Source: Prorocentrum cordatum (Eukaryota). From it: DNA of 64,000 bases. The notes below the pieces were generated by a model. The model made no database searches. It worked only from the letters and a program-made list of their open reading frames with translations, and was not told the DNA's origin. Positions within the stretch are counted from its first letter, which is position 1, and each line of letters begins with the position of its first letter. This document shows positions 27,137-57,275 of this stretch, in pieces. The stretch spans positions 186,001 through 250,000 of the forward strand of contig CAUYUJ010000092.1 in the NCBI GenBank assembly GCA_963575745.1, written 5' to 3'. A program made the translations under genes and the position numbers.

Positions 27137-32593
<5,457 letters not shown>

Positions 32594-33442
32594 TCGTGGC
32601 CTTCGGCCCATCTCGTCACCGTTGTGGGTCACAGGCCTCCGGGATGTTCATTGGGAGGCCGGGGTCCTGATGGGTGCCGTTTGAAGCCTCTTGGGAGCCG
32701 TTTTGTTGTTTCTTGGGGCGTATGTGGGGCTTCTTGGAGGTCTCCTGTGGCCTATCGGGGGCCTCCTGGGGAACCTCATGGGGCGGAAGACTCAGATTTT
32801 CGGTGTGTGTTCCCGTTCTTGGACCCTTCTTGGGGCTGTCTCTGAGCCCTCCTGGGCCGTCTTGAGGCCCTCTTGGGCCGTGTTGTGGCCATCTTGAAAA
32901 CCGTTTTGGGCTTCTTCGGGCGGTCTTGGGGGCCTCTTGGGCTGTCTTGGAGCGTCGGGAGCTTGAAAAGTAGAGGACCCCAAAAGTAAGTCATGCGAGA
33001 AGATCCGCTGCAGCCCAGGGAACCGCAACAAGCCCAAGAAGATTTGGCAATTTGGGCTTCGGGCCCTTTAAAAGACTCCCTAGGAATGAGGACTGATGCT
33101 TAGAGGATTGGGCAAAGGACCTGAGGGCACGCCCACTCCGTGCCCATTGACACGGTGGCGGAGACACGCGTGCAGTGGCCATACACATCAGCCGAGATGG
33201 CAAACATGCAGCTATACCGGCAGGGTAATTGGATTGCCAATCCGACGCGATGTTGTCGCATATTGAAGTTTGCACCCATCTCACCCGCCCGTCCGAAACA
33301 GAAGCATGTATTCGGCATCCGAAGGATTGTCCCATGTACGACTTCGCGAACAGGGCAGCGGCGAGGGAACAGGTGGAAGGGAGAAGGGAGGAGAGAAGGG
33401 AAAAGAAGGAACGGAGGAGGGGGAGAAACGGGAAGGACCGGC

Positions 33443-36909: not shown

Positions 36910-38109
36910 GTCGGGCGTCCAAAAAAGCAGGCGGTGCCCGCCGCAGCCGAGGTGCCGACGCGATTGGTACGAAGAACGGATTTCAGCACGTTGATCAGGA
37001 GGGGGGGGGGCCGGGGGAAGAGGGCATCCACTTGCACCGTACCATGCAAATCCTGCGCCTGAGATCCTACGCCAGCGTGGCGCATCCATGGATGATGGGT
37101 TCATGGCTTCATCTTGACAGATTGCCAGCGCAAGCGGATACGTAGCCGGACTCCTCCCGAGGAGGGGGCGCCGAGCGCAGTGAAGGTTCCTCACGCGTGC
37201 GGACCAACGTTTTCTTCGCGACCATTGGTTCCAGCAAAAAGAAGATCCCCTTTCGGAGCGAGCGGGTCGAAGCTCCTTGCCATTCGTTCTGATCCTGCTC
37301 CTGTTGTTCCTCTCTCCTCCCTCCTTCCTCCTCCCACCCTCCTCCTCCCACAGATCGCGATTCTGCTACGACAGATGCCGACTCCCGAATCAAAGCTGCG
37401 CGGAAAAAGTCCGGCCTGCAAGCTCGCGCTCTTCACGAGACAGTTTGCGATTGTGCAGCGGCATTCTCATTCCCGTTCGACATTGTGCTGGCCCTTGGCA
37501 AGTGACAGTTCCGCTGGAGTCACGGGTGCTGTCCATGCACCGCCACGTGCTCAGGATGATTCTTCGACTTCCACGCCGCAGCACCAGATGCGGCATCCCA
37601 GCAGTAGTAACAGAACGACCACCGCATGCGGCTCCACCAGCAGACTAAAGCAGCAACGACGTCACCGCGTTATCGAGCCCATGCTCCCGCACAAACGCCA
37701 CGGGAGCCATGGCAAGCGTGGGTCTGGCTCACGACGGAACAGATTGAATAATATTGTGCCGAACTTGGGTACGAGTCTAACACGGTTGTAACCAATTTGG
37801 GTACGAATCTAATCCGGTTGTAACCAGCACATATTGACAGTTTCAATGGAGCTCTTTTTGGGAAGCGCTGATAATCGGAAGCACCGCACAACGCGAGCAG
37901 CGCCATTATCACAACGAGCGGCACGCATGGCGTGTATAAGTGTGGGAGTGGGGTCGAATAACCCCATGCTGCAGATAATAAGCCCTAAGGGATAATAAAG
38001 TTCTGGGTTTTCGGGGGGATAATAAAAGTTGCCCGCCAGAGCCAGCATAAAGAGATATCAGGAGGAAAAAGCCAAAGATATCTTGAGAACCCTTGGTGTT
38101 TGGTCCTCT

Positions 38110-38270
38110 ATGAGACATCCTCAACAATGATTTTTCTCGGTTGAGGCATCCTCAACGAATTTTTTGTTTCGCTTGAGACATCCTCGAAATATTTGCCTGT
38201 TTCGCTGGAGACATCTTCAAATTATTGCTTATTTCGCTTGAGACATCCTTGAAATCATTGCTTGTTTCGA
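38110..38270. repeat. 32-bp repeat array (left terminal, ~5 units)
   Basis: Core GTTTCGCTTGAGACATCCTCGA plus a ~10-nt variable linker. Confidence 0.9.
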
Positions 38271-38286
38271 AAAAAAACTACTAAGG

Positions 38287-38691
38287 CTAGGGCGCACCCT
38301 CGAGCGCCCACTTGCGCTGGAGCCGCTCGGAGAGCGCCTCTACAACAGGCTCGGGCTCAAGCTTCGGGCGCTTGCCGCTGCCGTCCTCGGGCTCGTCGTC
38401 CTCGGGCTCCTCGTCCTCTGGTTGCGGTGCGGACTTGCGGCGCTTGGCGTTCTGCCAGGCTCGCTTCTCCTCGTTGTCACTGCTGCGAGGGATCTCCTCC
38501 AGCTCCTTGGTGCGCTTCTGGCTCTTGACGTCCTCGAGCGGTTTCTCGTTCCCGCTCCCCTTGGAGTCCTGGAGCGGTTTCTCCTCCTTCTTGGGGTCCT
38601 CGCGCTTCTCGCTCTCCATGGGTGCCTCGAGCGGTAGCTGCGTGTTTATCTCGGGCATATCACCCATGTCGAAGAAGCTCGGCAAAGACAT
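38287..38691 (-). CDS. Accessory gene 5: 134-aa charged, disordered protein with NLS-like AKRRK and KRPK
   Basis: The first in-frame ATG downstream of the SL-like motif is at 38691, with GC3-rich codons. The upstream part of the 193-aa ORF is repeat-array read-through. Confidence 0.65.
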   Translation of the reverse strand: MSLPSFFDMGDMPEINTQLPLEAPMESEKREDPKKEEKPLQDSKGSGNEKPLEDVKSQKRTKELEEIPRSSDNEEKRAWQNAKRRKSAPQPEDEEPEDDEPEDGSGKRPKLEPEPVVEALSERLQRKWALEGAP

Positions 38692-38768
38692 CCTTGATAC
38701 TCGGAGCTGTGGCGCTCTGTCGCGTTGGCTTGGGCCTTGGTTTGTGAAACTTTTGGGAAGCTCTGAAT

Positions 38769-38792
38769 CTTGAGCCACCAAATGGCTACGGA
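38769..38792 (-). promoter_or_regulatory. Genome-encoded dinoflagellate spliced-leader-like motif
   Basis: The minus strand reads TCCGTAGCCATTTGGTGGCTCAAG, which is DinoSL DCCGTAGCCATTTTGGCTCAAG with a 2-nt insertion. It lies 77 nt before the ATG. Confidence 0.85.
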
Positions 38793-38805
38793 GATCAGTC
38801 TTGCT

Positions 38806-39125
38806 TGTTTCGCTTGAGACGTCCTCAAAGAAAGCATTCCTTGTCTCGCTTGAGGCATCCTCGACCAATCTCTCGTTTCGCTTGAGACACCCTCTAAATA
38901 AATGTTTGTTTCGCCTGAGGCATCCTCAAAGAATTGCTGGTTTCGCTTGAGACATCCTCGACATGATTGTCTGCTTCGCTTGAGACCTCCTCGAACTAAG
39001 TGTTGGTTTCGCCTGAGACATCGTCAAATAATTCCTTATTTCGCTTGAGACATCATTCAAGTAAGTGTTTGTCTCGCTTGAGGTGTCCTCGAACAATTGC
39101 TTATTTCGCTTGAGACATCCTCGGA
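38806..39125. repeat. 32-bp repeat array (~10 units) upstream of gene 5
   Basis: Same core motif and orientation as the other arrays. Confidence 0.92.
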
Positions 39126-39196
39126 ATCGCATTGTGTGTTGTTTTGTTTTGCTAGGGTCTCGCGCAGAAGCTCGGAACAGCTGAGACTGCTCGCAG

Positions 39197-41112
39197 TCAA
39201 ATATTCATAACCTTGCTCTCGAACTCCTTGGCTGCCCTCGCAAGGAAACCCTTCTTGCGCACCGCCTCGAAGTGCTCGCCCATGCACGCCCTGCATCCTT
39301 TGGACCCGTCCTTGAGCATCTCGCATGTCTTGCAATCTTTGGCCGCTTGCAGGGTTGCCTCGAGGGTGGCGTGCTTGGGCTCGGTCTCCAGCGGATCCTT
39401 GGCCTTGCTCTTGGCCTTGCCCCTGGGTTTGGCCTTGCCCTTTGCCTTGGCCTGGGCGGCAGCGTTGTCGCTCGCATCTAGCAGCTTCTGGATCCACTCG
39501 TTGCCTCGCGAGTAGATGTCCTTGATGGTGCTCGGAGGCAGGCGGCCTTCGCCGCGGATCTCGCGCAGGGCGCGCTCGAACCACCTCGTCACCCACAGGC
39601 CGCAGGACCACCCGTCAAGTTGAAACCTCGTGTTGCTCGGAGTGGGGCACTCGACCTCAGGGCCCAGGAGCTTGTGGAGGATCCTCGTGGCCGCCTGCTT
39701 GGCGGACTCGGACGGTACCTTGAGGGCGTCTCGGTACTCGATGGCCTTGTTGGCGTGCTCCTTGGTCACCTTGAGGTAGGCGTAGTGCGCTGGGTTCTCG
39801 CTGTGGACGCAAATGAGGATGCGCTTGGCGTTCTCGACTTTTTCGAGGCAGGCCTTCTGCTCGTTCTGGGCCTCGGTCGCGGGCTCGTCGTCGCCTTGGT
39901 CTCCTCGAGCCCAGGTGACAGCGATTGTCGGCTCGATCAGCAGGACATCCTCGGGAACGCCCGCTCGCTCCTCGATCTCGCCTATCAGGGCTCGCACTGT
40001 GCCGAGCTCGAGGGTGCGGTTCTTCTTGACGAATTCGCAATTCGTGATCGCCAGATGCTTGGCGAGCTCGGTGCGCCTGAACATCCTGCACACTCGCCAA
40101 TCTATATTGAGGGGCTTGGCGGGCGTCCACTCCTGCTCGACCACGACCTCCCAGGCTCGAGGGCCGATGGGCCACTGGGGGCGACCTCCCGCTCGGCTTC
40201 CGCTGCCCTTCCGCTCGGCTTCCGCGCGAGCTCCCGCTCGGCTTCCGCGTCAGATTCCGCCCTGCTTCCGCTGGCCCTTCTGCTCGGCTTCCGCCCATGC
40301 CCCATTGCCCTTCGAGCCTGGCTGGAACGGATCTGGAAGATCGCCGCCGTCCCGACCTCGAGCACCCGGAGCTGGCACTCGCCCTCGCAGTCTTTGACGC
40401 GTCAGACGTATTGAACTCTGCCGCGCCTGCCCTCGTGCAAGCACTCCTCGTCGACCCGCGCGATCTTGCCGTGCCAGGGCGAGTCCTTGCAAGGCTCGAG
40501 GCCCCCGTTCTGCTTCTTCTTGTCTGTTGCCGTCTTGTTATGCTTCGCTTTCAGTTTCTGCTTGAGCCCTTTTCTGAGAAGGAGGTCTTCGGCTTGGGGG
40601 CTCGCCCTGTCGGCGTCGCTCTGGCGATGCCTCGACTCTTGCTCTCGAGTGCGTCTCGGCCCTTCTGCTCGCGATTCGCCTTGTTCCACTTGGCCGCCAG
40701 CTTGCCCGCGCGCTGGCCTCGGAACTTGCCCGCCCACTTGTTCTTGCGCTCGCTTCCCTTGCGAAGCCTGACTCGGCCTTCCAGGGCGCGCGGGAACTGG
40801 GTATTCTTGATGCGCTCCTCTGGCGGCTTGAGCATCTCTCGCTGCTCGTCTGCGAGCCCGAGGTCTAGCCCTGCAAGCTCGAGGAGGCAGGGGTTCTCGT
40901 CGTCCGCGTAGCCCCTCGGCAAGTCCTCGACTGCGAAGCACTCGCCGTCTAGCAAGCTCCAGTCGGGCACTGGGGGCACGTTCTCGGGCCAGCTCGCAGC
41001 GGCCTCGAGCTTCCCCCTGGCCAGTCTCGGCTCGATGCCTCTGCCAGCCTCGATGGTGCAGCTCCAGGGTCCGTCGCCCGTCGCGATCTTCAGCTCGTTC
41101 TGCTCGGTCGGC
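39197..41112 (-). pseudogene. Exon 2 of the transposase fusion: basic linker, Ulp1/C48-like cysteine protease and C-terminal CxxC...CxxC; disrupted by two frameshifts and one stop
   Basis: ILICVH..AHYAYLKV, YRDAL and RFQLDGWSCGLWVTRW give the H-D-Q-C order of clan CE/Ulp1 proteases. The tail contains CKTC..GCRAC. Coding-like sequence is stitched from ORFs 40551..40979, 40402..41259 (3' part), 40102..40365 and 39197..40144. Confidence 0.75.
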
Positions 41113-41257
41113 CTCGCCGCGACTCGCCCCCCTCCTCATCCTTGGCCTCCTCCTCCTTGCCCTCTCCCTCCCCCCCCCCCCCCCCCCCCCCCACCCCCAC
41201 CCCCCCCTCTTCCGGGCGCCGCGGGGCGAGGGGGGGGGGAGATATAAGGTTATATAC

Positions 41258-41316
<59 letters not shown>

Positions 41317-41329
41317 AAAAAAAAAAAAA

Positions 41330-41392
<63 letters not shown>

Positions 41393-41402
41393 AAAAAAAC
41401 CT

Positions 41403-41494
<92 letters not shown>

Positions 41495-41599
41495 TATGAT
41501 CAAACAAAATCCAAAGAACACGCATACATATAAAGGAAAAGAAGAAGAGCAGGGGGAGCAGGAGGAGGAGAGAGGAGCGGAGAAGGAAGAAGCGAAAAC

Positions 41600-42842
41600 C
41601 CAAAGTTCAAAACTAATTAGATTTAATTTGTAAACGATTAATGAAAATTAAGATTTTCATCTGGTCGTGTAGGGTAGCTCATGCGCTTAGTTTTCCCAGG
41701 AACGCGTCGGCTTTTTACATTTTTATCGCGCAGAACTGAAGCTCGGAGGTGCGCGCGCGCGTGCGCCTCTGAGCTTCACTTCTATATTATTCACCATTAA
41801 TAAATCTATGTCAAAAACGAAATCGAAAATTTCTCTGAAGGAACGCGTCTTTTTTTGTATTTTTTAATGCAGAACTGAAGCTCGGAAGCGCGCGCGCGCC
41901 GTGGCCGGGCCACCCGCGCGCGCGCGCGGGCGGCCCGGTCACCGCGCGCGAGCTTCAGCTCTGTATTATAAAAATATTGAAAAGCCGACACGTTCTTCAG
42001 CCTCCGTAAAGGGCCCCAGAAATTTTCGATTTCGTTTTTGGCATGGAATGTAGATTTATGAATGGTGAATAATATAGAAGCGAAGCTTGGTGGAGCGCCG
42101 CCGCGCGCGCGGCGGCGCGCCTCCGAGCTTCAATTCTACATTTGATAAATACAAAAAGATTCAAATGGTTTCTACAGAATTTTGCGCGCATTCCTGTAAT
42201 TCTTATAGGTCCCCTAAGATTCCGACTGGTTTCCATAGAGATTCCTATTGGTTTCTTCAGAGATTCCCCATGTGCCTCGTTTTCCCAGGATATTCAACCA
42301 CAGCGATAAACAAGTTCAGGGGGGCAGGGGGAGGAGAAGAAATATATAAAGATAAATAGAAATATAGAAAGAGAAGAGGAGGTAGAGGAGGAAGAGGAGG
42401 AGGAGGAGAAACAGCGAGAGGAGGAGAGGAGAAGGAGATAGCAACAATCCAAAGTTTAAAACTTATTACATTTAATTTGTAAACGCCTAATGAAAATTAA
42501 AATTTCCATCTGCTCATGTAGGGTAGCTCATGTGCTTAGTTTCCCCAGGATGATCAACCCCAGCGATGAGCAAGTTCAGGGGGGCGGGGAGACAGGAAGA
42601 AAAAGAAGTAGAAAGAGAGAGATAGAGAAATAAGAAAAGAAACATGGGAATAATGAGAAGGAGGAAGAGCACGAGAAGCAGAGGAAGAGGAAGAAGCAAA
42701 CATCCAAAGTTCAAAACTTACTAGATTTAATTTGTAAGCGCTTCGTAAACATTAAAATTTCCATCTCTTCGTGCAAGGTAGCTCATGCGCTTAGTTTTCC
42801 CAGGATAACCAACCCCAGCGACGAACAAGTTCAGGGCGCCAG
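41600..42842. repeat. ~135-bp AT-rich dispersed module (copies ~41600, ~42279 partial, ~42449, ~42704; also ~49330, ~49572)
   Basis: caaagttcaaaact.attagatttaatttgtaa...gtagctcatg(c/t)gcttagttttcccagga...aacaagttcaggg recurs, separated by purine-rich tracts. Confidence 0.88.
41700..42160. other. Nested multi-hairpin/foldback element
   Basis: Three GC-cored hairpins with GAAGCT...AGCTTC stems (~41731-41783, 41869-41963, 42075-42139). 41700-41727 is inverted at 41968-41995, and 41772-41834 is inverted at 42018-42087. Confidence 0.8.
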
Positions 42843-43714
42843 GAGGGGGGGAGGAGAAAGAGATAGAGAAATATATAGAGATATATAGATAGGGGAGAGA
42901 GAGAGAGAGAGAGAGAAAAAATGAAGAAAGAAATAAAGAAAGAAAGAGAGAGAGAGAGAGAAAAAAAAAGGAAAACGTGAGAGAGGAAGAAGAGGAGGGA
43001 GAGAGAATAAGGAGGAGGAGGAGGAGGACGAGCAGGAAGAGGAGAGAAGGTAGGGGAGCAGGAGGCAGAGGAGGGGGAGGGGAAGGGGCAGGATGAGAAG
43101 GAGGAGAAGGAGGAAAAGAAAGGAGGAGCAGGAGGAGGTGGAACAGAACAGGATTCCTCAAGCACTGCTTGTTTCGCTTGAGACATCCTTGAACAAACGC
43201 CTGATTCGCTTGGGACATCCTCGAACGAATGCTTGAGGTCGTCTTGGAAGCTTTCTCGGAGATCCTCCTGGGATTCTCTTGAATTCGTTGAAGATCCAAG
43301 CTCCAGGCTCGAGATCCCCCTCCTCCTCCTCCTCCTCGACCCCCTCCTCCTCCTCCTCTTCTTCCTCTTCTTCCTCTTCCTCCTCCTCCCCCCTCCTCCC
43401 TCCTCCCTGCTCCCTCCTCCCTCATCCCTCTTCCCTCCCGCCTCCCTCTCCTCCTCCTCCTCATCCTCCCCCTCCTCCTCCTCCTCCTCCTTATCCTCCT
43501 CCCGCCCGCCGCCTCGCTGCGAGCATCTGGTTCGCTTGAGACATCCTTGAACAAACGCCTGATTCGCCTGAGACATCCTCGAACGAATGCTTGAGGTCGT
43601 CTTGGAAGCTTTCTCGGAGATCCTCTTGAGATTCTCTTGGAATCGTTGAAGATCCAAGCTCCAGGCTCGAGATCCTCCTCCTCCTCCTCCTCCTCCTCCT
43701 CCTCCTTGACCTCC

Positions 43715-43746
<32 letters not shown>

Positions 43747-43946
43747 CTCCTCCCCCCTCCTCCCTCCTCCCGCCCCCTCCTCCCTCCTCCCCCTCCCTCC
43801 CCCCCACCCCTCCTCCCTCTCCTCCTCCTCCTCCTCCTCCTCCTCCCCTCTCCTCCTCCTCCTCCTCCTCCTCCTCCTCCTCCTCCTCCTCCTCCTCCTC
43901 CTCCTCCTCCTCCCTCCTCCTCCTCCCTCCTCCTCCCTCCTCCTCC

Positions 43947-43977
<31 letters not shown>

Positions 43978-44101
43978 TCCTCCTCCCCCTCCTCCTCCTC
44001 TCCTCCCCTCCTCCTCCTCCTCCTCCTCCTCCTCCTCCTCCTCCCCTCCTCCTCCCTCCCCCCATCCTCCTCCCCCTCCTCCTCCTCTTCCCTCCCACCG
44101 C

Positions 44102-46236
44102 CTCGCTGCGAGCATCTGGTTCGCTTGCATGCCTTGGAGCGGCACGGCCTCCTTGTTCCCCTCGCGGAAGCGCTTGTAGGCCTCGGGGATGCAGTAGATG
44201 CACTCGTAGGGCCCCCAGCTGCTCGGGTACCTGTAGTCTTTGGTGGGGTCGGCCTTGGCCCCCTGGAACCACTCCTGCTCGACCGCCCAGTGGATCTGGC
44301 TCTTGACCTTGCGGATCGCCGCCTTGAGCTGGCTGTGCTCGCGGGCGTCGGGTTCTTGGAGGAAGCTCGCCACGTCTGGGGCCGTCGGCGCGTAGACGAT
44401 GTTCTTGAGCCAAGCTCGGAGCGTCGCGCTCTCGGTCCACTGGCTCGACAGGCAATCTGCGAAGACGAGGGCTTGGCCGTGCTCTTGCTCGATGAAGTCA
44501 ATGGTCCAACTTGCAATGAGCTCGTCCGTCCAGGCTCCCGGCTGGCCCCAGATGCCGATCTGCTCGAAGATCTCGGCGCGCTCCTCGGGGTCGAACTCGA
44601 GGAGGGCTTGGCGCCAACCCTTCATGATCGTGCCGATGTTCTCGCCTGCTCGGAAGACCTCGGCCTCGCCGTCGCTCCGCTCGTAGCGGACGTCTCGGAG
44701 CCAGGTGCCGCTCTCGAGGTTCATGTCGGAGATCTTGCAGTGCCTCGCGCACGGGACTGGGGGCACGCTGCGCTTCTTGGCCGACCTCGGCCCCCGGCTC
44801 GGGTCGAACCACCCCTCGACGCCCGAGATGTTGATGAGCGTGAGCCTGTACTTGTCGCCCGCGCTCGAGTATGCTTGGTCTACTTGCTGCTTCTTGTCGC
44901 CTTGCTCACCGTAGAACTTCTCTCGCTCGGCCCCCCAAGCTGCCCTGTCTGTCTCGGCCTGCGTCTCGCGGAACTTGCGGCGGAGCTTCTGGATCCGGGC
45001 CTTGTGGCTTGCGCCCTGGAGCTCGGACTCGTGGAGGTAGACTTTCTCCTCGCCTCGGAGCTTGAGCCAGAGCGCGGTCGCGTCGACGACGACCACGCTC
45101 GCGTCTCGCCTGCGCTCGGCGAAGGCCTCGGCGTCTTCGACGAAGAGGCTGAGCTCCTCGGCGCTGCCCCTCGCCACGAGGTGCTGGAACCTGTCGGCAG
45201 TGGCCCAGGTCAGCTTGGCCTTGCTCTCGGAGAGGGTCTTGTTCATCTGTTCCGAGAGGCGCTGGCCCTTGTGCCCTGACGCGCGCAGCCTCGGGAGCAC
45301 GACTTCGTTGATCCACTTCGAGTCCTTGCGGGCCAAGTTGTTGATCTTGAAGGTCGCGAGCCGCTGGGTGATTCTCTTGAGAATCTCGGCGTTGTACCAG
45401 GGGTGGCTCGTGTTCTTGAGATGGAGCTGCTTGTCCTTCTCCCACTCGAGCTCGTACTTGAGCCTGGTCAAGATCGTCTTGTGGCGAACTTCGTGGCCGT
45501 ACATGTGTCCCCGCTTGAACCAGATCTCGAGTCGGCCCACGACTCCCTCGAGGGGGCGCTTGGGGCACGCCAGGCCAGGAGTGAAGTTGTGCACTCTCGC
45601 GCCCTGGCTCTTGTTTGCCTTTGCCTGATGCGGCCGGACTCGGCCGCAGGCTCGGATGCCGTTCTTGCCGAGCCTCGCCACGGCGACCAGCTTCTCGAGA
45701 GACGCCCCCTTCTTGTTCCAGTTCTTGACTGCCTCGTAGGGCCAGCGCCACTTCTCGGTGAGCTGAGTCTTGACGCCGACTGGGGGCTGGGAAAAGTCCG
45801 CGAGCTCGTGCTTGTCGGCCTGCTTGCACCAGCCGAGTACGATCTGGAGCTTGCACTGCGCGGGCGGGTCTCGGCGCAGGGTGGGAGCTGCTCGGGGCTT
45901 GTGCGTCCCGCGGTACTTGCGACTCGAACCCTGGGGTCTGCCGCCCCTCTTCGGCCCCCGAGCGACGCCTCGGCCGCTGTCGTCGGGGCCGAGCACCTTC
46001 CCCTCGGTGCTCGCCTTCGCTCGGCGCTCAGCAGCGGCTGCGAGGCGCTCCTGCTCGGTCGTCTCCGCCTCGAGCCTCTTCGCCTCGAGCTCCTGGAAGA
46101 ACATCGCCTTTGCCTCGGGGGACAGGTAAGGCGAGCTCCTGAGCTTCTTGTGGGAGCTCGGGGATTCCACCGGACTCGAGCTTGCAAGTCCACATAAGCT
46201 TGACAGGCTCGACTGCCGCTTGATCGGCGCGCCCAT
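44102..46236 (-). CDS. Exon 1: pogo/Tc5-like (DDE_1 family) DDD transposase
   Basis: Putative triad VVVDATALW ... VFADCLSSQ ... ASFLQEPD, with 35 residues between D2 and D3 (DD35D). CENP-B/Tc5 HTH-like LEIWFKRGHMYGHEV. The frame is open for ~711 codons; the rest of the 1169-aa ORF is microsatellite. Confidence 0.8.
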
Positions 46237-46302
46237 GTCGACTGGCTCTTGACTGGCGCGCTCGAGAGGCGAAACTTCTGCGCGAGTGGCGTGCTCGAAA
46301 GG

Positions 46303-46325
46303 CTTGGGGCAAGAACGGATACGGA
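46303..46325 (-). promoter_or_regulatory. Degenerate SL-like motif upstream of the transposase
   Basis: The minus strand reads TCCGTATCCGTTCTTGCCCCAAG followed by CCTTTCGAG, 66 nt before ATG 46236. Confidence 0.55.
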
Positions 46326-46438
46326 TGTTGTCCTTGCGGAGCTGCTGCTGCCTGAGACCTCGAATACGTGCCTGTATCGTTTGAGAGCTGTTGCTGTTGT
46401 TCGCTTGAGACGCCCTCGAATAAGAAAAGGAAGGGAAG

Positions 46439-46670
46439 CTAGGGTAGGCCTAGGGTAGACCTAGGGTAGGCCTAGGGGTAGGCCCTAGGGGTAGGCCTAG
46501 GGGTAGGCCTAGGGGTAGGCTCTAAGGGTAGGCTCTAAGGGTAGGCCTAGGGTAGGCCTAGGGATGGGCCTAGGCGTGTAGGCCTAGGCCCATCCCTAGG
46601 CTTACACGCCTAGGCCTACCCATTCCTTTTCTTGTCTCGCCATCCCTAGGCCTACACGCCTAGGCCTAGG
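46439..46670. repeat. CCTAGG/TAGGGTAGGCC satellite (inverted counterpart at 48885-49184)
   Basis: Direct reading. Confidence 0.9.
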
Positions 46671-46910
46671 TACGTCCTCGAGTAAGTTCTTGTTTCGCCT
46701 GAGACATCCTCGAACGAATCTCTCGTTTCGCTTGAGACATCCTCGGCAAATCTCTCATCTCGCTGGAGACATCCTCGAGCAATTGCCTGTTTCGCTTGAC
46801 ACATCCTCGAAAAACATATCTCGTTTCGCTTGAGACAGCTTCGACAACTCTCTCGCTTTGCTTGAGACGCCCTCGAGTATATGCTTGTTTCGCTTGAGAC
46901 ATCCTCGAGG
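46670..46910. repeat. 32-bp repeat array (~7-8 units)
   Basis: Same core motif. Confidence 0.92.
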
Positions 46911-47022
46911 GTTCTCTTGGGGTTCTCTTGAATTCATCGAGTGGGAGCCTCGATACTGGGCCGCTCGACATTTTTCTTCGCGTCCAGCCTCGGTTAGCTC
47001 GCAAGAGTAGCGCCTCGGCCAT

Positions 47023-47373
47023 CTAGAGTGGCTCACTCGAATCAACCCTGGGTTCTCTCGACTGAAGCTCGTCGTCCTGGAACTGCGTGGGCTCGCCTGG
47101 CTGGAGCTGCTCGGCTGTCTTGCCGCGCACGAGAGAGGCCCTCCACTTGTTCTCTTGGGTGGGGTCGAGCTCGGTCTCGACCTCCGTCTCGGTCTCCGCC
47201 CTCTGCTGCTTGACGTCGGTCTTGACCGCAGTCTCGATCTTGAGCTCCGTCTCGATCTTCACGGTTGTCGGCTTGGACTTCCTCGAGTTCTGCGTTGTTT
47301 TTTTCGCGACAGAAGGCTTGGGCTCCCTCGGCGCCTGCGCTGGCTTCTTGGAGACAGTCGCCCGCTTGGCCAT
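47023..47373 (-). CDS. Accessory gene 3: 116-aa protein with a basic N-terminus and tandem psi-K-x-E/D motifs
   Basis: ATG 47373 (MAKRATVSKKPA) follows an SL-like motif; the protein contains VKIE, LKIE and VKTD. Confidence 0.6.
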   Translation of the reverse strand: MAKRATVSKKPAQAPREPKPSVAKKTTQNSRKSKPTTVKIETELKIETAVKTDVKQQRAETETEVETELDPTQENKWRASLVRGKTAEQLQPGEPTQFQDDELQSREPRVDSSEPL

Positions 47374-47425
47374 GTCGCCTGCAGCGCGCCCGCTCCAGGT
47401 GCGTTCCTCGCTCGTGCTCGAAATC

Positions 47426-47448
47426 CTTGAGCCAGAGTGAACTACTGG
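47426..47448 (-). promoter_or_regulatory. Degenerate SL-like motif
   Basis: The minus strand reads CCAGTAGTTCACTCTGGCTCAAG then GATTTCGAG, 52 nt before the ATG. Confidence 0.6.
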
Positions 47449-47449
47449 A

Positions 47450-47820
47450 AGAGACATCCTCGAAAGCACTCTCGCTTCGCTTGAGACATCCTCGACGAAT
47501 CACTTCTCTCTCTCTTGCCAGATCTTCGAAATTATGTGTTACTTCGCTTGAGAGATCCTCGGCACATAGCTTGTTTCGCTTGAGACGTCCTCGACATACT
47601 TGTTTGTTCCGCTTGAGACTCCTCAGGCAATTGATGCGTTTGCTTGAAACATCCTTGAAATAATTTGATGTTTCGCTTGGGACATCCTCAAACAATTGCT
47701 TGTATCGTTTGAAACGTCCTCGCATGCGTGCTCGTTTTGCTTGAAATATCATCGAACAAATGTTTATTCCGATTGAGACATCCTCTGCAACTCTGTCGCT
47801 TCGCTTGAAACGCCCTCGAG
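47450..47820. repeat. 32-bp repeat array (~11 units) upstream of gene 3
   Basis: Same core motif. Confidence 0.92.
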
Positions 47821-47883
47821 CCATTTTCGACGCACGATAGGGAAATCTTCCTTGTTTGCTCGAAGCACTCCGAGCGCACGCAT

Positions 47884-48670
47884 CTAACTCGAGCGCCCTT
47901 CGAGTATCCACTGGCTGTGCGTGCGCTCGTAGGGCGCCCTGGCTTGCGCCTCGGCGTCTGAGGCTGGCTCGGTCGCCCCAGCGTCGGGGCCCGAGAACAC
48001 TGCGTAAACCTCGGGTTCCTCTACTAGGCGCTTGCCCTCCTCGGGCACGAGCTCCTGGCGCTCGGCGCCCTCGTCGTCAAGCTCGTCGGTATCGCTCTCG
48101 GGCTGCTCTGGTGTTTCGGGCTCTCGAGACCTCGGGCTCCCGACCTCGTCCTCGGACTCCGCGGGCGTCTCGAATTCGTCTCGGTCTCGTCATCGCTTCT
48201 TCTCGCCGCTGCTGATGACGGCCTGGGGCTCCTTCTCGCGGGCCTCGATTTCCTCGGGCGTCTCGGGTTCCTCGAGCTCTTGGCGCTTGGTGCCCTCGTC
48301 GTCAAGCTCGTCGGTCTCGCCCTCGGGCTTCTGGTGTCTCGGGCTCTCGAGACCTCGGGCTCTCGGCCTCGTTGTTCGGGAGCTGGGCGTTCTCCTCGAG
48401 CGCCTCCTGCTCCTCGAGACACTGCGCGTTCTCGGGCGGTCCTGTGAGCCCGAGCTCTTGCCGCATTGCCTCGAACATGTCTTGGGCGTTCCCGAACGTC
48501 GCGAGGCTCTCCTCGGAGAAGATGTCTCGCCAATCGCTCGGGAGACGAGCAGCCATGTCCTCGGGAAAGATGCCTCGCCAACGGCTGCGGGGGCGGTCAG
48601 CCATTGATCTCGGCGATGTCGATCGAGACCCTTGCCTCTGAGATTGCCCGAACTCGATGCGCTGTTCCAT
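47884..48670 (-). pseudogene. Accessory gene 2: acidic protein with an internal repeat; one frameshift (~48330) and one internal stop (48190-48192)
   Basis: ORF 48302..48670 continues into the frame of 48190..48834 and through TGA to the stop at 47884. SPRSREPETPE.PE..TDELDDEG..RQEL occurs twice. Confidence 0.6.
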
Positions 48671-48707
48671 TGTCGCCTTGGAGCAAATATCTTGGATAGC
48701 TCGAAAT

Positions 48708-48729
48708 CTTGAGCCACCAAATGGCTACG
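48708..48729 (-). promoter_or_regulatory. Genome-encoded SL-like motif (same GG-insertion variant as 38769)
   Basis: The minus strand reads CGTAGCCATTTGGTGGCTCAAG then ATTTCGAG, 37 nt before ATG 48670. About three 32-bp repeats lie immediately upstream (48745-48830). Confidence 0.85.
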
Positions 48730-48884
48730 TATATTTCTGCTGCTCGTTTCGCTTGAGACGTCTTCGAAGAACGTGTTTGTTTCGTTTGGATGGTCCTCGA
48801 CGAGCGTGCTCGTTTCGCTCGAAGCCTCCTCCAACCTTTACTAGTATCGCTGGAGGGGCCCTTTGAGGCCTTTCCCATGCTACC

Positions 48885-49184
48885 ATAGGGCCTACCTCTA
48901 GGCCCGCCCTAGGCCCACCCCTAGGGCCTACCCCTGGGGCTACCCCAGGCCTACCCCTAGGGCGTGCCCCTAGGCCTACCTTAGAGGGCATGCCTCTAGA
49001 GCCTACCCCTAGGGCCTACCCCCACGCCTACCCCTAGAGCCTAAAATTAGGCCTACACCCCATAGGTCTACCCCTAAGCCTACCTCTAGGCCTACCCCTA
49101 GAGCCTTCCCCTAGGCCTACCCTAGGCCTACCCCTAGGGTATCCCTAGGCCTACCCTAGGCCTGCCCATAGGGCCTTCAGTAGG
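48885..49184. repeat. GGCCTACCCCTA satellite (reverse complement of the 46439-46670 motif)
   Basis: Direct reading. Confidence 0.9.
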
Positions 49185-49743
49185 GCGCCAGGGGTGAGGA
49201 GAATAAATGTTGATAGTTAAATAGACAGATAGGAAGAGAAGAAGAGGAAGAGGAGGCAGGGGAGGAAGAGGAGGAAGAGGATAAGGAGGAGGAGAAAGAG
49301 CAAGAGGAGGAAAAAGAGAAGCAAAACACCAAAGTTCAAAACGCATTAGATTTAAATTACAAGCGCTTAATGAAAATTGCAAGTTTAGCTCATGTGCTTA
49401 GTTTTCCCCGGGTAATCAACCCCTGCGATAAACAAGTTCAGGGTGGCAGGGAGACAAGAAGAAAAAGAAATAGAAAGAGAGAGAGAGAGATACATAAATA
49501 AGACACGAAAGAACCGAAGGATGAGAAGGAGGAAGAGCAGGGGAAGCAGAGGAAGAAGAATATGCAAAAATCCAAAGTTCAAAACTTATTAGATTTAATT
49601 TGTAAGCGCTTAATGGAAATTAAAATGTTCATCTGCTCGCGTAGGGTAGCTCATGCGCTTAGTTTTCCCAGGATAATCAACCCCAGCGATAAACAAGTTC
49701 AGGGCGCCAGGGGGAGGAGGAGAAAGAATGAGAGAGAGATAGG

Positions 49744-49785
<42 letters not shown>

Positions 49786-49989
49786 TATATATAGAGAGAG
49801 AGAGAGAGACAGAGAGAAAGAGAGAGAGAGACAGAGAAAGAGAGAGAGAGAGAGAAAGCAATAACAAAAAAAAAAGAGAAAGAGAAAGAGAAAGAGAGAG
49901 AGAGAGAGAGACAGGACGAGGGAGGAGGGAGGAGGAGGGAGGAGGAGCAGGAGGAGGAGGCCCATGACAGGATTCCTTAAGCACTGCTT

Positions 49990-50409
49990 GTTTCGCTTGA
50001 GACGTCCTTGCGAATTTGGTTGCTTCGCTTCAGGCATCCTTGAAAACATGCTTGCTTCACTTGAGACATCCTTGGACAAACGCTTGATTCGCTTGAGGCA
50101 TCTCGAAAGAATGCTTGGGGTCCTCTTGGGGCCCTTCTCGGGTATTCCCTTGGCGTGTCCTTGGTCGAGGGTCCAAGCTCGAGGCTCCAGGCCCGAGATC
50201 TCAGCTCGAAGCCCAGTGGGCCTCGAGAGCGTCGAGGTTCGAGGCTTGCCTCGACGCTCGTCGCCGCCACCGGAGGGAGGAGAGGCGGCGACGGCACCGG
50301 CGACGGCAGATGCGACGACGGCGACGACGACGACGACGACGGCGGCAGCGACGACGGCGTCGTCGTCGTCGTCGCCGTCGCCGCCGCCACCGCCTTCATC
50401 CTGCCTCCG

Positions 50410-50449
<40 letters not shown>

Positions 50450-50740
50450 CCTCCTCCTCTTCCTCCTCCTCCTCCTCCTCCGCCTCCTGCTCCTCCTGCT
50501 GCCCCCCTCCCTCCCCTCCCTCTCCCCCCCCATCTCCCCTCTCACATCCCCGAGCAATTTCTTGTTTCGCTTGAGGCGTCCTCGAGCAAATCTCTCGTTT
50601 CGCTTGAGACATCCTCGACAAATCTCTCGCTTTGCTTGAGACATCCTCGAGTATTCGCTTGTTTCGCTTGAGACGCCCTCGACGAGCCTCTCGCTTCGCT
50701 TGCGACATCCTCGAGCAATTCTTTGTTTCGCTTGAGACTC
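49990..50740. repeat. 32-bp repeat arrays (~4 and ~6 units) separated by microsatellites
   Basis: Same core motif. The start acaggattcct.aagcactgcttgtttcgcttgagac is duplicated at ~43148. Confidence 0.88.
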
Positions 50741-50769
50741 CCTCTCCTCCCTCCCCCCTCCGTCCTCGG

Positions 50770-51067
50770 TCGACCCTCGGGTCGAGAGTCCAAGGTTCTC
50801 GGGCCAGGGATCCGAGATCTCGTGATCTCGGATCAACGATGGCCCGAGGCTCTCGGAGCCTCGATCCGAAGATCGATCGAGGATCGAGCCTCGCCGAAGG
50901 GATCTAAGACGAGATGACCTTGAGACAGGGGCTCGATCCTCGATCGACCCTCGGATCGAGAGCCCAAGGTTCTCGGGCCAGGGATCCGAGATTTTGTGAT
51001 CTCGGACCAACGATGGCCCGAGGCTCTCGGAGCCTCGATCCGAAGATCGATCGAGGATCGAGCCTCG
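50770..51067. repeat. TCGA/GATC-rich duplication with 174-bp period, 3' of gene 1
   Basis: tcgaccctcgg...gatcgagcctcg starts at 50770 and 50944. Confidence 0.85.
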
Positions 51068-51211
51068 ACGGAGTTGCGCTCGGTGTTACGCTCGAGAAGG
51101 GGCTGGCGAAGCCTCTCGGGAAACCTCTCGGAAAGCTCGAGGGAACGGGCCTTGATCGCCACTCGCTCCTCGATGAGGCCTCGATGAAACCTCGCGCTGG
51201 GCCTGCTCGGC

Positions 51212-52279
51212 TCAAACCTCCATCTCGATCTTCTCGAACTCCTGCTTGCTCGTCTTCTCGACCTTCATCTCCTCGTACTCATTGTTGGTCTTCGCGTAGC
51301 TCGGGAAGCTAGTCTTGATGAACACATCGAAGAGCATATTCTGATGCTCGAGCTTCTTCTTCTCCTCGATGTCCTCGTCGCGCTTGAGGCGCTTGGCGGC
51401 GGTGTACTTGTGCACGTCGAGCTCGAAAGCCTTCTTGGCCACCTTGCTGACTTGCCAGCGCCGCGCCACGATGGCGCTCGTGGCGCAGATGCGCTCGCTT
51501 GCGTCACCCTCGAGGCAAAACCGCTTGAACTCGTCGAAGTAGTCCTTGGCCTTCTTGGGCATGATTGCTACCGACTCGAACTGCTCCTTGCCCTTCTTGG
51601 CGCTGGCCCTCGGCAAGACAGACTTGAATTGCTTGTTCACTGGAAGCATCACCACGTACAGCGCTTGCAGATCTTGGGGGGTCTCGCCGAGGACCTGCTT
51701 GACGACCTTGGTCGCGGCTCTCTCGGGCATCATCTCGGCCTTGTCGCCGAGGAGCGCGTCGTGCGTTTTGGCCTCGTCGAGCAACTCCGCTCGGAAGCTC
51801 GGCAGCATCCTGAACAACTTCTCGACGTTCGTGTCCTGGTCGTCGAAGCCGTCGAACATCTCGGTGCTCCCCTCGATGTGCGTCTTGTAAAAGATCGCAC
51901 AGAGCAGCTCGCCGCGCCGCTTGTCCTTGCCGTGGAAGATGCCCTCGTACTGGATGCCCTCGAGGCTCCCCGTCTTGAGGGCGCTCGCGAGGGCGGCGTT
52001 CTTGCTGTTCTTGTGCCACAGCGCGGAGCCGCCCCGGCAGTAAAAGTTCGCCATTCTCGAAGCGTCGGTAGCCTCGCCGCTCGATTGGCACTGCCTCATC
52101 TCGGCGCAGCCTGCCTTCTCGGCGATGTACTCGAGTGTCTTGTTCTGCACCTCGATGGCCTCGTTCTGCTTCTCGAGCAGCTTGGACATCTGCTCCAAAA
52201 CCTGGTTGTTTTGCTTGAGCAGCTCGATGACTTGGCTGTCCTCCGCGAGCTGGGGGCTCGACGCCTTGGGCGACGCCAT
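51212..52279 (-). CDS. Accessory gene 1: intact 355-aa protein of unknown function (N-terminal coiled coil, globular core)
   Basis: ATG 52279 (MASPKASSP) follows an SL-like motif. Heptad-like LLKQNNQVLEQMSKLLEKQNEAIEVQNKTLE and strong GC3 bias. The upstream part of the 540-aa ORF is repeat array. Confidence 0.8.
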   Translation of the reverse strand: MASPKASSPQLAEDSQVIELLKQNNQVLEQMSKLLEKQNEAIEVQNKTLEYIAEKAGCAEMRQCQSSGEATDASRMANFYCRGGSALWHKNSKNAALASALKTGSLEGIQYEGIFHGKDKRRGELLCAIFYKTHIEGSTEMFDGFDDQDTNVEKLFRMLPSFRAELLDEAKTHDALLGDKAEMMPERAATKVVKQVLGETPQDLQALYVVMLPVNKQFKSVLPRASAKKGKEQFESVAIMPKKAKDYFDEFKRFCLEGDASERICATSAIVARRWQVSKVAKKAFELDVHKYTAAKRLKRDEDIEEKKKLEHQNMLFDVFIKTSFPSYAKTNNEYEEMKVEKTSKQEFEKIEMEV

Positions 52280-52338
52280 GGCTCGGGAAGCTGAATCTCG
52301 AAAGCTTCGAAAGCTCGAAAGCTCGAAATCTCGAAGCG

Positions 52339-52359
52339 CTCGAGCCAGAACGGTTGCGG
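52339..52359 (-). promoter_or_regulatory. SL-like motif
   Basis: The minus strand reads CCGCAACCGTTCTGGCTCGAG: 16/21 identical to DinoSL, with all differences transitions. It is followed by tandem TTTCGA(G) copies. Confidence 0.7.
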
Positions 52360-52380
52360 GCGGGAGCAGGAGACTAGCTC

Positions 52381-53035
52381 GTTTCGCTGGATACATCCTC
52401 GAAAACGTGCTCGTTTCGCTTGAAACATCCTCGAACAAATCTCTCGTCTCGCTTGAGACATCTTCGACAAATCTTTCATTTCGCTGGAGACATCCTCGAG
52501 CAATTGCTTGTTTCGCTTGAGACACCCTCGAACAAAATTTGTCGTTTCGCTTGAGACGTCCTCGACAAATTTCTCCTTTCGCGTGACAAATCCTCGAGTA
52601 TATGCTTGTGTCGCTTGAGACATCCTTAAGAAACGTATTGTGTCGCTTGAGACGTCCTTCAGTGTATGCAAGTTTCGCTGGAGACATCCTCGAATGTATG
52701 CCTGTTTCGCTTGAGACATCCTCGACAACGTGCTCGCTTCGCTGGATACATTGTCGAAAACGTGCTCGTTTCGCTGGAGACATCCTCGAACAAATCTCTC
52801 GTTTCGTTTGAAACATCCTCGACAAATCTCTCATTTCGCTTGAGACATCCTCGAGTATATGCTTGTTTCGCTTGAGACATCCTCGACAAGTTATCGCCTC
52901 GTTTGAGACATCCTCAAATATTTGCTGGTTCCGCTTGAGACATCCTTGAAATATTGATCGTTTGGTTTCAGGTTGCCTCCCAAAATTATTGGTTTCGCTT
53001 GAGACATCCTGAAAAAACGTGTTCGCTTCGCTTGA
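52381..53035. repeat. Largest 32-bp repeat array (~20 units), at the right end of the element
   Basis: A 22-bp conserved core plus a 10-11-nt semi-variable linker; period 32-33. Confidence 0.95.
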
Positions 53036-53604
53036 TGTTGTTATCTCAACATGAGAAGGAAGTAACCTCGATGGCGAACTTTTCCCGTGATAATGAAGTT
53101 CGGCCTCCGCGCCCCCGCGCCCCCGACCAAACTCTTATTGGCCGACGATAAAAAACTCTAACTACTTAAGGGGGGATGGACATTATTATCGTGGGCATGC
53201 GGTTATGTTGCCTCCTCAAGGGGCGCTTACTGGCCAAATCTGCAGCAATCGGGTCGAGGGGGCCGAGGAGGACACATTATAGAACCCGGCACGTTTGGCA
53301 ACCAGCCCATCCACGAAGACGAAATGTCAATCAGGAATTTGATCGTAGAGTCGTGTTTCGTCATTCGCCTGCCGTTGCTCGGACGCGGCGGCTAATTACG
53401 AGCATGAGGACGACGACGAGGACGAGGACGGCAACGACGACGACGACGTCGTTTGGGCGCCGCAGCGGCGAGGGCGAGGGCGAGGACGAGGACGGCGACG
53501 AAGACGACGACGAATGGCGTCGACGACGACGTTGACAAGGACGACCAGGACGAGGACGGCGACGACGACTGTGAAGACGATGACGATTCGAGGAACAAGC
53601 AACG

Positions 53605-56216: not shown

Positions 56217-57275
56217 GTGGAAGATGGACGGCAGTTTGTGGCATCTGGGCCTTGCGAATGTTGTGCTCTGCCCAATTGCGGTTTTCGGGGTCGGATGTGT
56301 GGAGGCGGCAGAAGCTAGTCCTTGATGGGGGGGCATTGGCTAACCCCCCACCTGCACACAACGGGGGCGGGCGTGTTTGCCCGCCCCCGACCGACGCCGA
56401 GACCCTGCGTCCAATGGCGCACGTGGTCTGAAGTCCATGCTGACGCCTTTTCACGAGCGTACTCAGAATTCAATTCTGGTGCGGCTCGTGGAAATCTGGC
56501 CCAGGAGGCTAAACATTGATGCGGATTCCGGCGGGTTTTTTTTTACCGATTTCGGATTTCGCAAGTCGGCCGTCCAGGTCGGATGATTTCTCAAGGCTGG
56601 CTCTAATCAGCTATTCTGCTGAGCTGCAGTCCACCGCCGAGGGCTGCAAGTAGCGGGGAACGTGCGTAAGCCTTCCCGCGAACCGCCCAGGAGGACAGCA
56701 TCGCCTAAAACGGGCGCTCTACCATCCATTATTCAGTCCCCCTCCATCTCCTCTGGTTGGCTCGACGGCGAATGTGCGGGCGCAGCTGCGGGCGTGAACT
56801 GGAATAGATAAAGATTTCAGACAGGGTCGTAGCAGACGCCGCGTGCCCGCGGATTGATGTGGACACTGCCGCCGCATATGCAAACACTGAGCGGAGATGC
56901 TCAGTTCGGCGGTGGGGTGTCCCTGTTGTCTGTACGGCCGCGCCCCTATGACGCCCTCTGCTGGCCTGGATGGCGCATTCAGGTCGCAGAGGGGGATAGG
57001 GGGCGGAAGGGTTCTTCTGCTCTTTCCATAAACAGCAACTCGCCTCCAGCGCCCGTCACGTGTCGTGCGCCGCCGGCGCGCAGCCATTTCTGGCAAGTGC
57101 TTTCACATGAAGGTATTCAGTCGGAGGGACTGGCCATTGCTGGAGAGTTTGGTCATGATGCTATCTGTCGCCTTCTAGGCTCCAGTGAACCACTATTGCT
57201 GGGATTGAAATCCTTCGGCGCATTGCAGCGTGCTCTTCAATTGTACGTTGCAACATCAACCCTGCCGTGCCCACC

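Follow-up and report, generated by a model that had tools for sequence, protein, structure and literature searches.

Putative relict spliced leaders precede all five genes of a multicopy, array-structured cluster in the dinoflagellate Prorocentrum cordatum

Dinoflagellate mRNAs receive a 22-nt spliced leader (DinoSL) by trans-splicing, and RNA-mediated gene duplication in these organisms is usually recognized by relict copies of this leader in genomic DNA; whether such copies are only scars or also act as promoters or splice acceptors is debated. That question is raised anew by a gene cluster in Prorocentrum cordatum, in which a DinoSL-like string precedes each of five genes. The cluster is about 15 kb long and sharply bounded and lies in the 64,000-nt window analyzed here, the whole of a stretch of contig CAUYUJ010000092.1 (assembly GCA_963575745.1, forward-strand positions 186,001 to 250,000; positions below count from its first letter). 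It is made up of TCGAG-rich repeat arrays and the genes A, C, D, E, and G, all on the minus strand. The mobile DNA of giant dinoflagellate genomes is poorly catalogued, and this locus provides a natural test bed, combining five unrelated genes, one multicopy unit, and unevenly decayed leaders. We assign a probability of roughly 0.55 to the reading that the five motifs are genuine relict spliced leaders, i.e., the 5' ends of reverse-transcribed mRNAs, which have been inherited as DNA together with the multicopy unit.

The strings were compared with the 21-nt DinoSL core CCGTAGCCATTTTGGCTCAAG by edit distance, with insertions and deletions allowed. All five had been picked out beforehand from the letters alone (the sequence-only reading), and they agree letter for letter with the minus strand at the places given in Table 1. 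They precede the ATGs of same-strand open reading frames (ORFs) by 37, 52, 62, 66, and 77 nt, which is the typical range of 5' untranslated regions (UTRs). Each is full length, with no cut after nucleotide 7, and lies on the gene strand; the terminal AG is intact in five of five, TTTT is missing from leaders D, E, and A, and in E and A the internal GTAG acceptor is gone as well. The dinucleotides that follow the AG are AT, AT, GA, CC, and CG, and never the GT of a splice donor. Defined as a DinoSL match on the same strand no more than 500 bp upstream, a relict is present at five of five genes, with 2, 3, 5, 5, and 5 edits of 21; published definitions are looser and accept an exact 9-mer or a blastn match at word size 9 (PMC5585692, 10.1101/783902; here and below, published statements are drawn from excerpts of the papers cited). 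Relict leaders have been placed upstream of 22 to 23% of gene models by a lenient test, with the best-kept ones at -50 to -100 (Song et al. 2017, PMC5585692), at only 412 and 252 genes under stricter criteria (10.1101/783902), and in 25 to 26% of leader-bearing Alexandrium expressed sequence tags (PMC3229502).

How often such matches arise by chance was estimated from 150 dinucleotide-preserving shuffles of the whole window, both strands. At up to 3 edits we observed 2 matches against a mean of 0.027 per shuffle, at up to 4 edits 3 against 0.16, and at up to 5 edits 9 against 2.53, the last being 8 distinct sites (the count at 38776 is the same relic as that at 38769). The two strong motifs, at 38769 and 48708, are significant by count alone. 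Position adds a second line of evidence: 5 of the 8 sites fall within the five 100-nt stretches before the five ATGs, which together hold 500 of the 128,000 strand-positions (binomial P = 1.1e-10 for n = 9; still lower for n = 8). For the three weaker leaders by themselves, three 5-edit matches in 300 nt have a Poisson P of 3.5e-8; these three are non-random by position only, not by count against shuffled sequence, an outcome that the sequence-only reading had itself named in advance as damaging. The remaining sites are one at 44404, inside coding sequence, and two outside the cluster on the plus strand, ending at 14113 and 57097. Of the latter, the string at 14089-14113 (4 edits) has no TTCGAG nearby, and 10 nt past that at 57077-57097 (5 edits) stands ATGAAG|GTATTC, which may be a short first exon. 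These two sites put the local background of DinoSL-like strings, roughly estimated, at no more than 2 in 49 kb, while the cluster has 5 in 15 kb.

Leaders G and C carry a further mark. They are identical at 25 of 25 nt, including a derived 2-nt insertion (the GG-insertion variant, CCATTTGGTGGCTCAAG) and the ATT after the AG, while around them 30 of 40 positions match upstream, in array units, and 18 of 40 downstream. The 12 nt directly 5' of the two leaders are unrelated, and on the 3' side similarity is down to array level within about 25 nt. Because the 5' flanks are unrelated, the common block begins exactly at the leader's first base, like an mRNA end. Given the shared insertion, not all five leaders are independent, so the sequence-only reading's contention that these are not five independent retrocopies stands for at least G and C.

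A short motif behind the leaders is shared as well. TTTCGAG does follow four of the leaders, as had been noted from the letters, at +2 to +12, and leader G is followed by ATTCAGAG instead. The longer 8-mer TTTCGAGC, hereafter the box, occurs 7 times in the window where 3.3 copies are expected, and 5 of the 7 lie within 25 nt 3' of a leader (P = 1.9e-14). The motif is therefore non-random, and TTCGAG recurs 3 to 16 nt after the leader in all three leader-bearing relatives described below, although it is frequent on the coding strand of those loci, which makes the recurrence weaker evidence than it appears. The array unit (32 to 33 bp, best-kept core GAGGATGTCTCAAGCGAAAC) begins much like the box but not identically: TTTCGAGC stands against tTCGAGGATG, with GAGC at the leaders and GAGG in the arrays. 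As TTC is moreover the variable part of the array unit, the box, judged from these alignments, is related to the unit's repeats without being just a copy of one.

The leaders are inherited as DNA. Contigs from four sequencing runs cover the cluster genes at 85 to 99% identity with many contigs per place, which indicates a multicopy family; leader E is bridged by contigs of all four runs and leader A by one contig of run X3, so that leaders are DNA-encoded in other copies too. On the minus strand, base 47446 in leader D is C in those copies (68.9 of 71.3 depth in run X1, 10.9 of 10.9 in X3). This turns CCAGTAG into CCCGTAG, so other copies retain the canonical CCGTAG; it is the sole within-leader difference among those listed (41 of 858). 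With leader A changed by five transitions and the odd base of leader D canonical elsewhere, the decay looks mutation-like in these comparisons. A gene model from another locus, P0030, joins a gene-A-like C-terminal half to gene-C-like sequence and is probably a mis-merged model across two genes of another unit copy; the same A-then-C order at a second locus implies that the multi-gene arrangement was copied as DNA. P0030 is publicly named "HMG box domain-containing protein," yet Pfam finds no HMG box in it.

Encoded leaders also recur in distant relatives. Relatives of the big protein of gene E, at 35 to 50% amino acid identity, are encoded by ten metagenome loci; five of these extend 200 nt or more upstream of the match, and a DNA-encoded leader is present in three of the five. 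In L002 it is perfect (0 edits) and preceded by 84 nt of other sequence, and in L008 it has 1 edit. In L004 a pair of full-length leaders stands in tandem at 636-686, separated by 2 nt, and both show the same three changes (3 edits), which are possibly that organism's own leader variant. In L001 and L006 no leader was found within 240 to 260 nt upstream of the match, and both lack the N-terminal 80 to 100 residues. TCGAG-containing arrays adjoin the gene in L002, L004, and L008, with differing units of 15, 51, and 64 nt; the spacers of L004 and L008 show a weak resemblance to each other (best E = 0.04) and no significant one to the window. In a viral contig collection, neither the GG-variant leader, the array core, nor the big-protein family had a match.

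Two of these relatives have further features. The first stretch of L004 encodes the C terminus of a further big-gene copy, which implies head-to-tail copies. The same stretch of about 190 nt (the big-gene end plus 51-nt repeats) occupies both contig ends (1-260 and 4500-4680), so that the contig represents either a circle of about 4.45 kb or copies in head-to-tail tandem. In L008, two divergent genes each have a near-perfect encoded leader followed by TTCGAG (49-70, minus; 1035-1056, plus); the second leader has 1 edit, the second gene is truncated by the contig end, and the pair flanks a 414-bp repeat (2.2 copies) with arrays of the 15-nt unit TCGAGGCAGCCTCCC.

We infer that reverse transcription was the origin of the leaders. 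Under the reading we favor, leader-bearing mRNAs of the cluster genes would have been reverse-transcribed and integrated (retroposition, or "mRNA recycling"), and the leaders would mark the former mRNA 5' ends of five genes in a unit that encodes a putative pogo-like, transposase-type protein; they would then have been passed on as ordinary DNA whenever the unit was copied, decaying unevenly. The box would be the first stretch of the old 5' UTRs, and if the ancestral splice acceptor lay directly before a TCGAG-type repeat of the unit's noncoding DNA, the box would recur for that reason. Candidate routes to a five-gene cluster are stepwise capture at the arrays, later duplication, and template switching by reverse transcriptase between mRNAs whose 3' ends are alike rich in arrays; on reaching the 5' end of one mRNA, the enzyme might switch into the array-rich 3' end of the next, which could yield a one-way cluster without poly(A). 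The doubled leader of L004 is what would be expected if trans-splicing had added a new leader directly in front of an existing one before the mRNA was copied back, and together with the head-to-tail copies it points to RNA-mediated copying. The sequence-only reading had proposed a leader module propagated within the element, with capture of mature mRNAs at the arrays as its alternative. Of the module, what holds is that the leaders are really DinoSL-derived, in other copies and relatives as well; capture lies close to the RNA-mediated copying indicated by L004, and we favor it over propagation.

Several observations weigh against retroposition followed by inheritance as DNA. No A-tract that could be a poly(A) remnant lies between any stop and the next array, the only A-rich stretch being the 22-mer AGCAAAACAAAACAACACACAA after gene E. 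Gene E, with a 2,989-nt interruption and two frame changes, is unlike a fresh retrocopy, and the A-C adjacency in P0030 indicates that independent retrocopies alone are insufficient to explain the cluster. The invariance of TTCGAG at the four leaders of the big-gene family hints at constraint, and the two divergent genes of L008 with their near-perfect leaders are awkward for random retro-insertion. Finally, there is the identity of G and C to account for, and no leader variants are reported in a survey that covered 43 transcriptomes (PMC12014239). Simple block duplication would have kept the 5' junction and five canonical captures would not share an insertion, so neither fits G and C; the pattern requires a variant source of the leader that supplied two mRNA ends, gene conversion over a short tract, or selection on the leader.

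The rival that survives best, which we consider unlikely but a serious contender, is that the encoded leader and its TTCGAG(C) box form a selected expression cassette, a portable cis-module copied to each gene; possible roles are trans-splice acceptor (by the internal GTAG or the terminal AG), TTT(T/G)-type core promoter, or leader mimic. It would account for the presence of a leader at the end of five of five arrays with an ORF behind them and of none of the three without (B1, B2, and H, behind which no decayed leader was found at up to 6 edits), for the 25-nt identity of leaders G and C despite diverged flanks, for near-perfect leaders before the same family at 35 to 45% protein identity, each with TTCGAG (four of four), for the leader and TTCGAG at both divergent genes of L008, and for the terminal AG kept throughout. 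In published work, a promoter role has been proposed for relict leaders (PMC5585692, PMC6050394), transcripts of retrogenes are most often re-spliced at the relict's AG (PMC12014239), and there is speculation that a dinoflagellate RNA virus mimics the leader (PMC10235124). Against it, three leaders have changed at 5 of 21 positions, among them the TTTT of D, E, and A and the GTAG of E and A; decay at positions that a function would need looks like the decay of relics. The leaderless L001 and L006 (both N-terminally incomplete) also fail to support a cassette, and no conserved, significant leader fold was found. Perfect leaders are predicted equally by fresh retroposition, since the leader is identical in all dinoflagellates.

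A more specific form of the cassette idea, that dinoflagellate-specific pogo-like elements hard-wire the host leader and a TTCGAG box before each of their genes, we regard as unlikely. If true, it would mean that trans-splicing is guaranteed, or a processed mRNA 5' end imitated, wherever the element lands, and that the cassette is copied from gene to gene within the element, with the GG-insertion variant of two unrelated genes as its fingerprint. That private 2-nt tag would show in complementary DNA and so make encoded leaders distinguishable from trans-spliced ones.

RNA folds of the leaders gave z scores of -2.34 to +1.99 against shuffles. Only leader A, where the fold is repeat-driven, fell below -2, and a hairpin conserved between the GGCTC of the leader and the GAGC of the box was rejected as a candidate because 7 of 8 folds are no better than shuffles.

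It is improbable, in our judgment, that a leader was acquired only once and that an array-leader-box block was then duplicated or gene-converted before the other genes by recombination between arrays. Such a history would explain the insertion and the ATT shared by G and C (with 30 of 40 matching positions in the array units upstream), the 11 nt common to leaders D and E (TTTCGAGCACG), the CCGTTCT common to A and E, and the three changes shared by the tandem leaders of L004. However, the 12 nt 5' of G and C are unrelated and the 3' likeness is gone by about 25 nt; the sharing among D, E, and A is alignment-dependent and could reflect parallel transitions; and the changes in L004 may be that organism's own leader sequence.

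It is very improbable that the three weaker motifs resemble DinoSL by chance or are array units that have diverged. Some 2.5 matches at up to 5 edits are expected per window, the match at 44404 lies inside coding sequence with a coding look-alike recurring in relatives, and the array unit, whose core ends in ..GTCTCAAG, contains CTCAAG, the leader's last six bases. Yet the three matches in 300 nt are positionally significant, all three are followed by TTTCGAGC, other copies have the canonical CCGTAG in leader D, leader A differs by transitions only, and no array unit comes closer to the leader than 7 edits, so the leader strings are not array units. The converse idea, an array unit descended from the leader, was rejected, as just 4 of 11 positions beyond CTCAAG agree when read from the array consensus. 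Despite their identity to the leader exon, there is next to no chance that the motifs represent genes or pseudogenes of the spliced-leader RNA dispersed among the arrays, since each stands a UTR length before an ORF, none is followed by a GT donor or spliced-leader intron, and an Rfam scan gave no RNA-family match at the leader sites (only sub-threshold microRNA-type hits in low-complexity palindromes).

Table 1. Positions in the window of the cluster and of its arrays, leaders, boxes, and genes.
Feature	Positions	Strand	Remarks
Cluster	38100..53030	-	Array-structured and TCGAG-rich; all arrays and five genes on minus strand
Array A	52381..53011	-	18 units, core GAGGATGTCTCAAGCGAAAC; ends at leader A
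Leader A	52339..52359	-	CCGCAACCGTTCTGGCTCGAG; 5 edits, all transitions; ATG 52276 at 62 nt
Boxes after leader A	52313..52328	-	Two tandem TTTCGAGC within a run of TTCGAG-type 8-9-mers
Gene A	51212..52276	-	354 amino acids; no Pfam family
Arrays B1 and B2	49990..50744	-	B1 50564-50744, B2 49990-50105; neither ORF nor leader behind
Array C	48746..48831	-	2 units detected; ends at leader C
Leader C	48708..48729	-	CGTAGCCATTTGGTGGCTCAAG; 3 edits vs 21-nt core, same 2-nt insertion as G; ATG 48670 at 37 nt
Box after leader C	48699..48706	-	TTTCGAGC
Gene C	48302..48670	-	122-amino-acid ORF, probably shortened by frame change
Array D	47474..47817	-	10 units; ends at leader D
Leader D	47426..47448	-	CCAGTAGTTCACTCTGGCTCAAG; 5 edits; ATG 47373 at 52 nt; other copies CCCGTAG
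Box after leader D	47416..47423	-	TTTCGAGC
Gene D	47023..47373	-	116-amino-acid lysine/glutamate-rich ORF; no family
Array E	46675..46908	-	7 units; then (GGGTAGGCCTAG)n block and one degenerate unit (46399), then leader E
Leader E	46303..46325	-	TCCGTATCCGTTCTTGCCCCAAG; 5 edits; big-gene ATG 46236 at 66 nt
Box after leader E	46293..46300	-	TTTCGAGC
Gene E (big gene)	39197..46236	-	About 1,200 amino acids read against relatives; interrupted 44101-41113, two frame changes
Gene E interruption	41113..44101	-	2,989 nt, low complexity; both edges GCRGCGAGG
Array G	38801..39127	-	10 units; ends at leader G
Leader G	38769..38792	-	Full-length DinoSL relic TCCGTAGCCATTTGGTGGCTCAAG; 2 edits, 2-nt insertion; ATG 38691 at 77 nt
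Box after leader G	38761..38768	-	Degenerate, ATTCAGAG
Gene G	38287..38691	-	134 amino acids, acidic/lysine-rich; 4 weak homologues
Array H	38103..38269	-	5 units; last array, about 20 nt past gene G stop; no leader behind

The arrays set the cluster apart from the rest of the window. The 20-nt array core has 70 matches, all on the minus strand, of which 67 lie in arrays and were used for the consensus; the other three are single, weak (4 edits), and inside coding sequence. Of the minus-strand copies in the window, 38 of 42 TTCGAG and 75 of 84 TCGAGG fall between 38 and 54 kb (counted in 2-kb bins), and the rest of the window is nearly free of both. Neither terminal inverted repeats nor a TA-type target duplication of the unit was found, the edge-to-edge inverted matches being just 8 to 10 nt long and the best of them 10 nt (E = 0.28). 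This match, TGCTGCAGAT, lies near both cluster edges and, while not significant, could be a subterminal motif. The edges at 37960-38050 and 53090-53250 also hold short TTATTATC / GATAATAA motifs, with three direct copies at the 3' edge and one direct and one inverted at the 5' edge; these, too, are not significant but could be subterminal. A different repeat family occupies about 8 kb at 24950-33000, with degenerate 11/21/32-bp repeats of a unit like GGCCTCTTGGG / TCTTGGAGGCCTCTTGGGCCG; there is a (GT)245 microsatellite at 29029-29519.

For the six ORFs of the cluster, Pfam returned no significant family and no viral hallmark. Genes A, C, D, and G are single ORFs. Gene A has seven homologues, four of them named as uncharacterized P. 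cordatum proteins, and Pfam found nothing in six of the seven and one weak ZapB match below cut-off in the other. Just 3' of gene C, at 48106-48330, lies a repeated coding-like segment (..LDDEG.KRQEL..PETPE..); one run-X1 contig skips 223 nt there, so the copy number of this repeat differs between copies. Outside the cluster, an ORF at 7868-8656 (+) with an EamA-like transporter domain (E = 1.3e-11) gave the sole Pfam match above the curated cut-off among 12 ORFs scanned.

Gene E is the largest gene. Its homologues reach 1,210 amino acids, and their C-terminal parts match window ORFs 41117-40405 and 40147-39248, which makes it one gene from 46236 to 39197; the count of five genes made from the letters holds once the 295-amino-acid ORF at 39197-40084 is taken as its C-terminal part. 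In L002 the gene is one uninterrupted ORF. In L004 both halves are in one frame, but the longest ORF starts only at 1113, which places a stop or frame change between 780 and 1113. The interruption in the window contains GGA/GAG runs, 88 nt of poly-T, CT/GA runs, and array fragments, and about 700 nt of it are 78% identical to 49258-49960. It has the look of a repeat module that was inserted and may since have come to be removed by splicing; its edges would allow a GC..AG intron.

The family of the big protein is large: a family profile matched 1,021 clusters (defined at 50% identity) at E ≤ 1e-3, and 181 at E ≤ 1e-30, among 1.84 billion representatives, all of them unnamed. We consider it a large, unnamed dinoflagellate family that is probably pogo-like. 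For the N-terminal 719 amino acids, the nearest neighbors by a protein language model are DDE_1 (pogo-type) clusters (0.94, with 194 to 201 of 256 features). A candidate triad D385/D594/D630, assigned by eye, has 35 residues between the last two (DD35D), inside the DD29-56D range of pogo elements (PMC7386202), and D385 is invariant in the family alignment A1. Pfam DDE_1 (PF03184) had no match in 24 members, searched at E ≤ 5 in 9 and at E ≤ 0.01 in 15 long relatives, and a PDB sequence search with the big protein gave no match. No other Pfam family reached significance in those 9, the members of A1, or in 14 of the 15 long relatives. The C-terminal 295 amino acids show a C48-like H..D..C motif (H94, D119, and C161, read by eye), and their nearest model-feature clusters are C48 (0.89, rated a lead only); Pfam found no peptidase C48 match in this domain, and one of the 15 long relatives had a weak YopJ match below cut-off (E = 3.9e-4). 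A pogo/DDE_1-type DD35D transposase with a C48-like tail is thus a lead only. Either way, the locus exposes a large unnamed family that travels with TCGAG-type arrays in several dinoflagellate lineages.

Set against known systems, the unit shares with pogo/DDE_1 transposons, of which CENP-B is a domesticated relative, the DDE_1 model neighbors of its big protein, a candidate DD35D triad, and a large family. It differs in its 15-kb length, four extra ORFs, and internal arrays, in that neither terminal inverted repeats, a TA duplication, nor a Pfam DDE_1 match was found, and in the C48-like C-terminal domain of gene E, which is no feature of pogo. Chimeric retrocopies made by reverse transcriptase template switching are known for LINE-1, and the same process here would join mRNA copies head to tail in one orientation, with true 5' ends and no poly(A) between them. 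We found no paper in the open literature on a dinoflagellate pogo/Ulp1 element or on a transposon with an encoded DinoSL. Endogenised dinoRNAV genes are a closer parallel, being parasite-type, non-housekeeping genes with relict leaders that have been read as retroposed (PMC10235124). In the excerpted account of that case, however, a leader lies within 500 bp of 6 of 26 ORFs, whereas here it stands at UTR distance from five of five genes, in a DNA-transposon-like unit whose Pfam scan gave no viral hallmark. The doubled leader of L004 fits the repeated splicing and copying back described for DinoSL-DinoRL retrogene transcripts (PMC12014239); the published relicts are cut after the AG at nucleotide 7, leaving a 15-nt DinoRL 3' of the new leader, whereas the leaders reported here are full length, both of those in L004 included, and number one per gene in the window. 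Closest of all are the relict DinoSL retrogenes (Slamovits & Keeling 2008 via PMC3229502; PMC5585692), which likewise have a gene-strand copy of the 22-nt leader at UTR distance, variable decay, and mostly single-ORF genes. The present case departs from them in the private 2-nt insertion of two leaders, the shared TTTCGAGC box, the DNA-copied gene order, and the lack of poly(A) remnants, and in that all five genes of a single array-structured, multicopy unit, one bearing a transposase-type gene, carry the leader. What is new here is that every gene of one multi-gene unit has both a relict leader and a shared short box.

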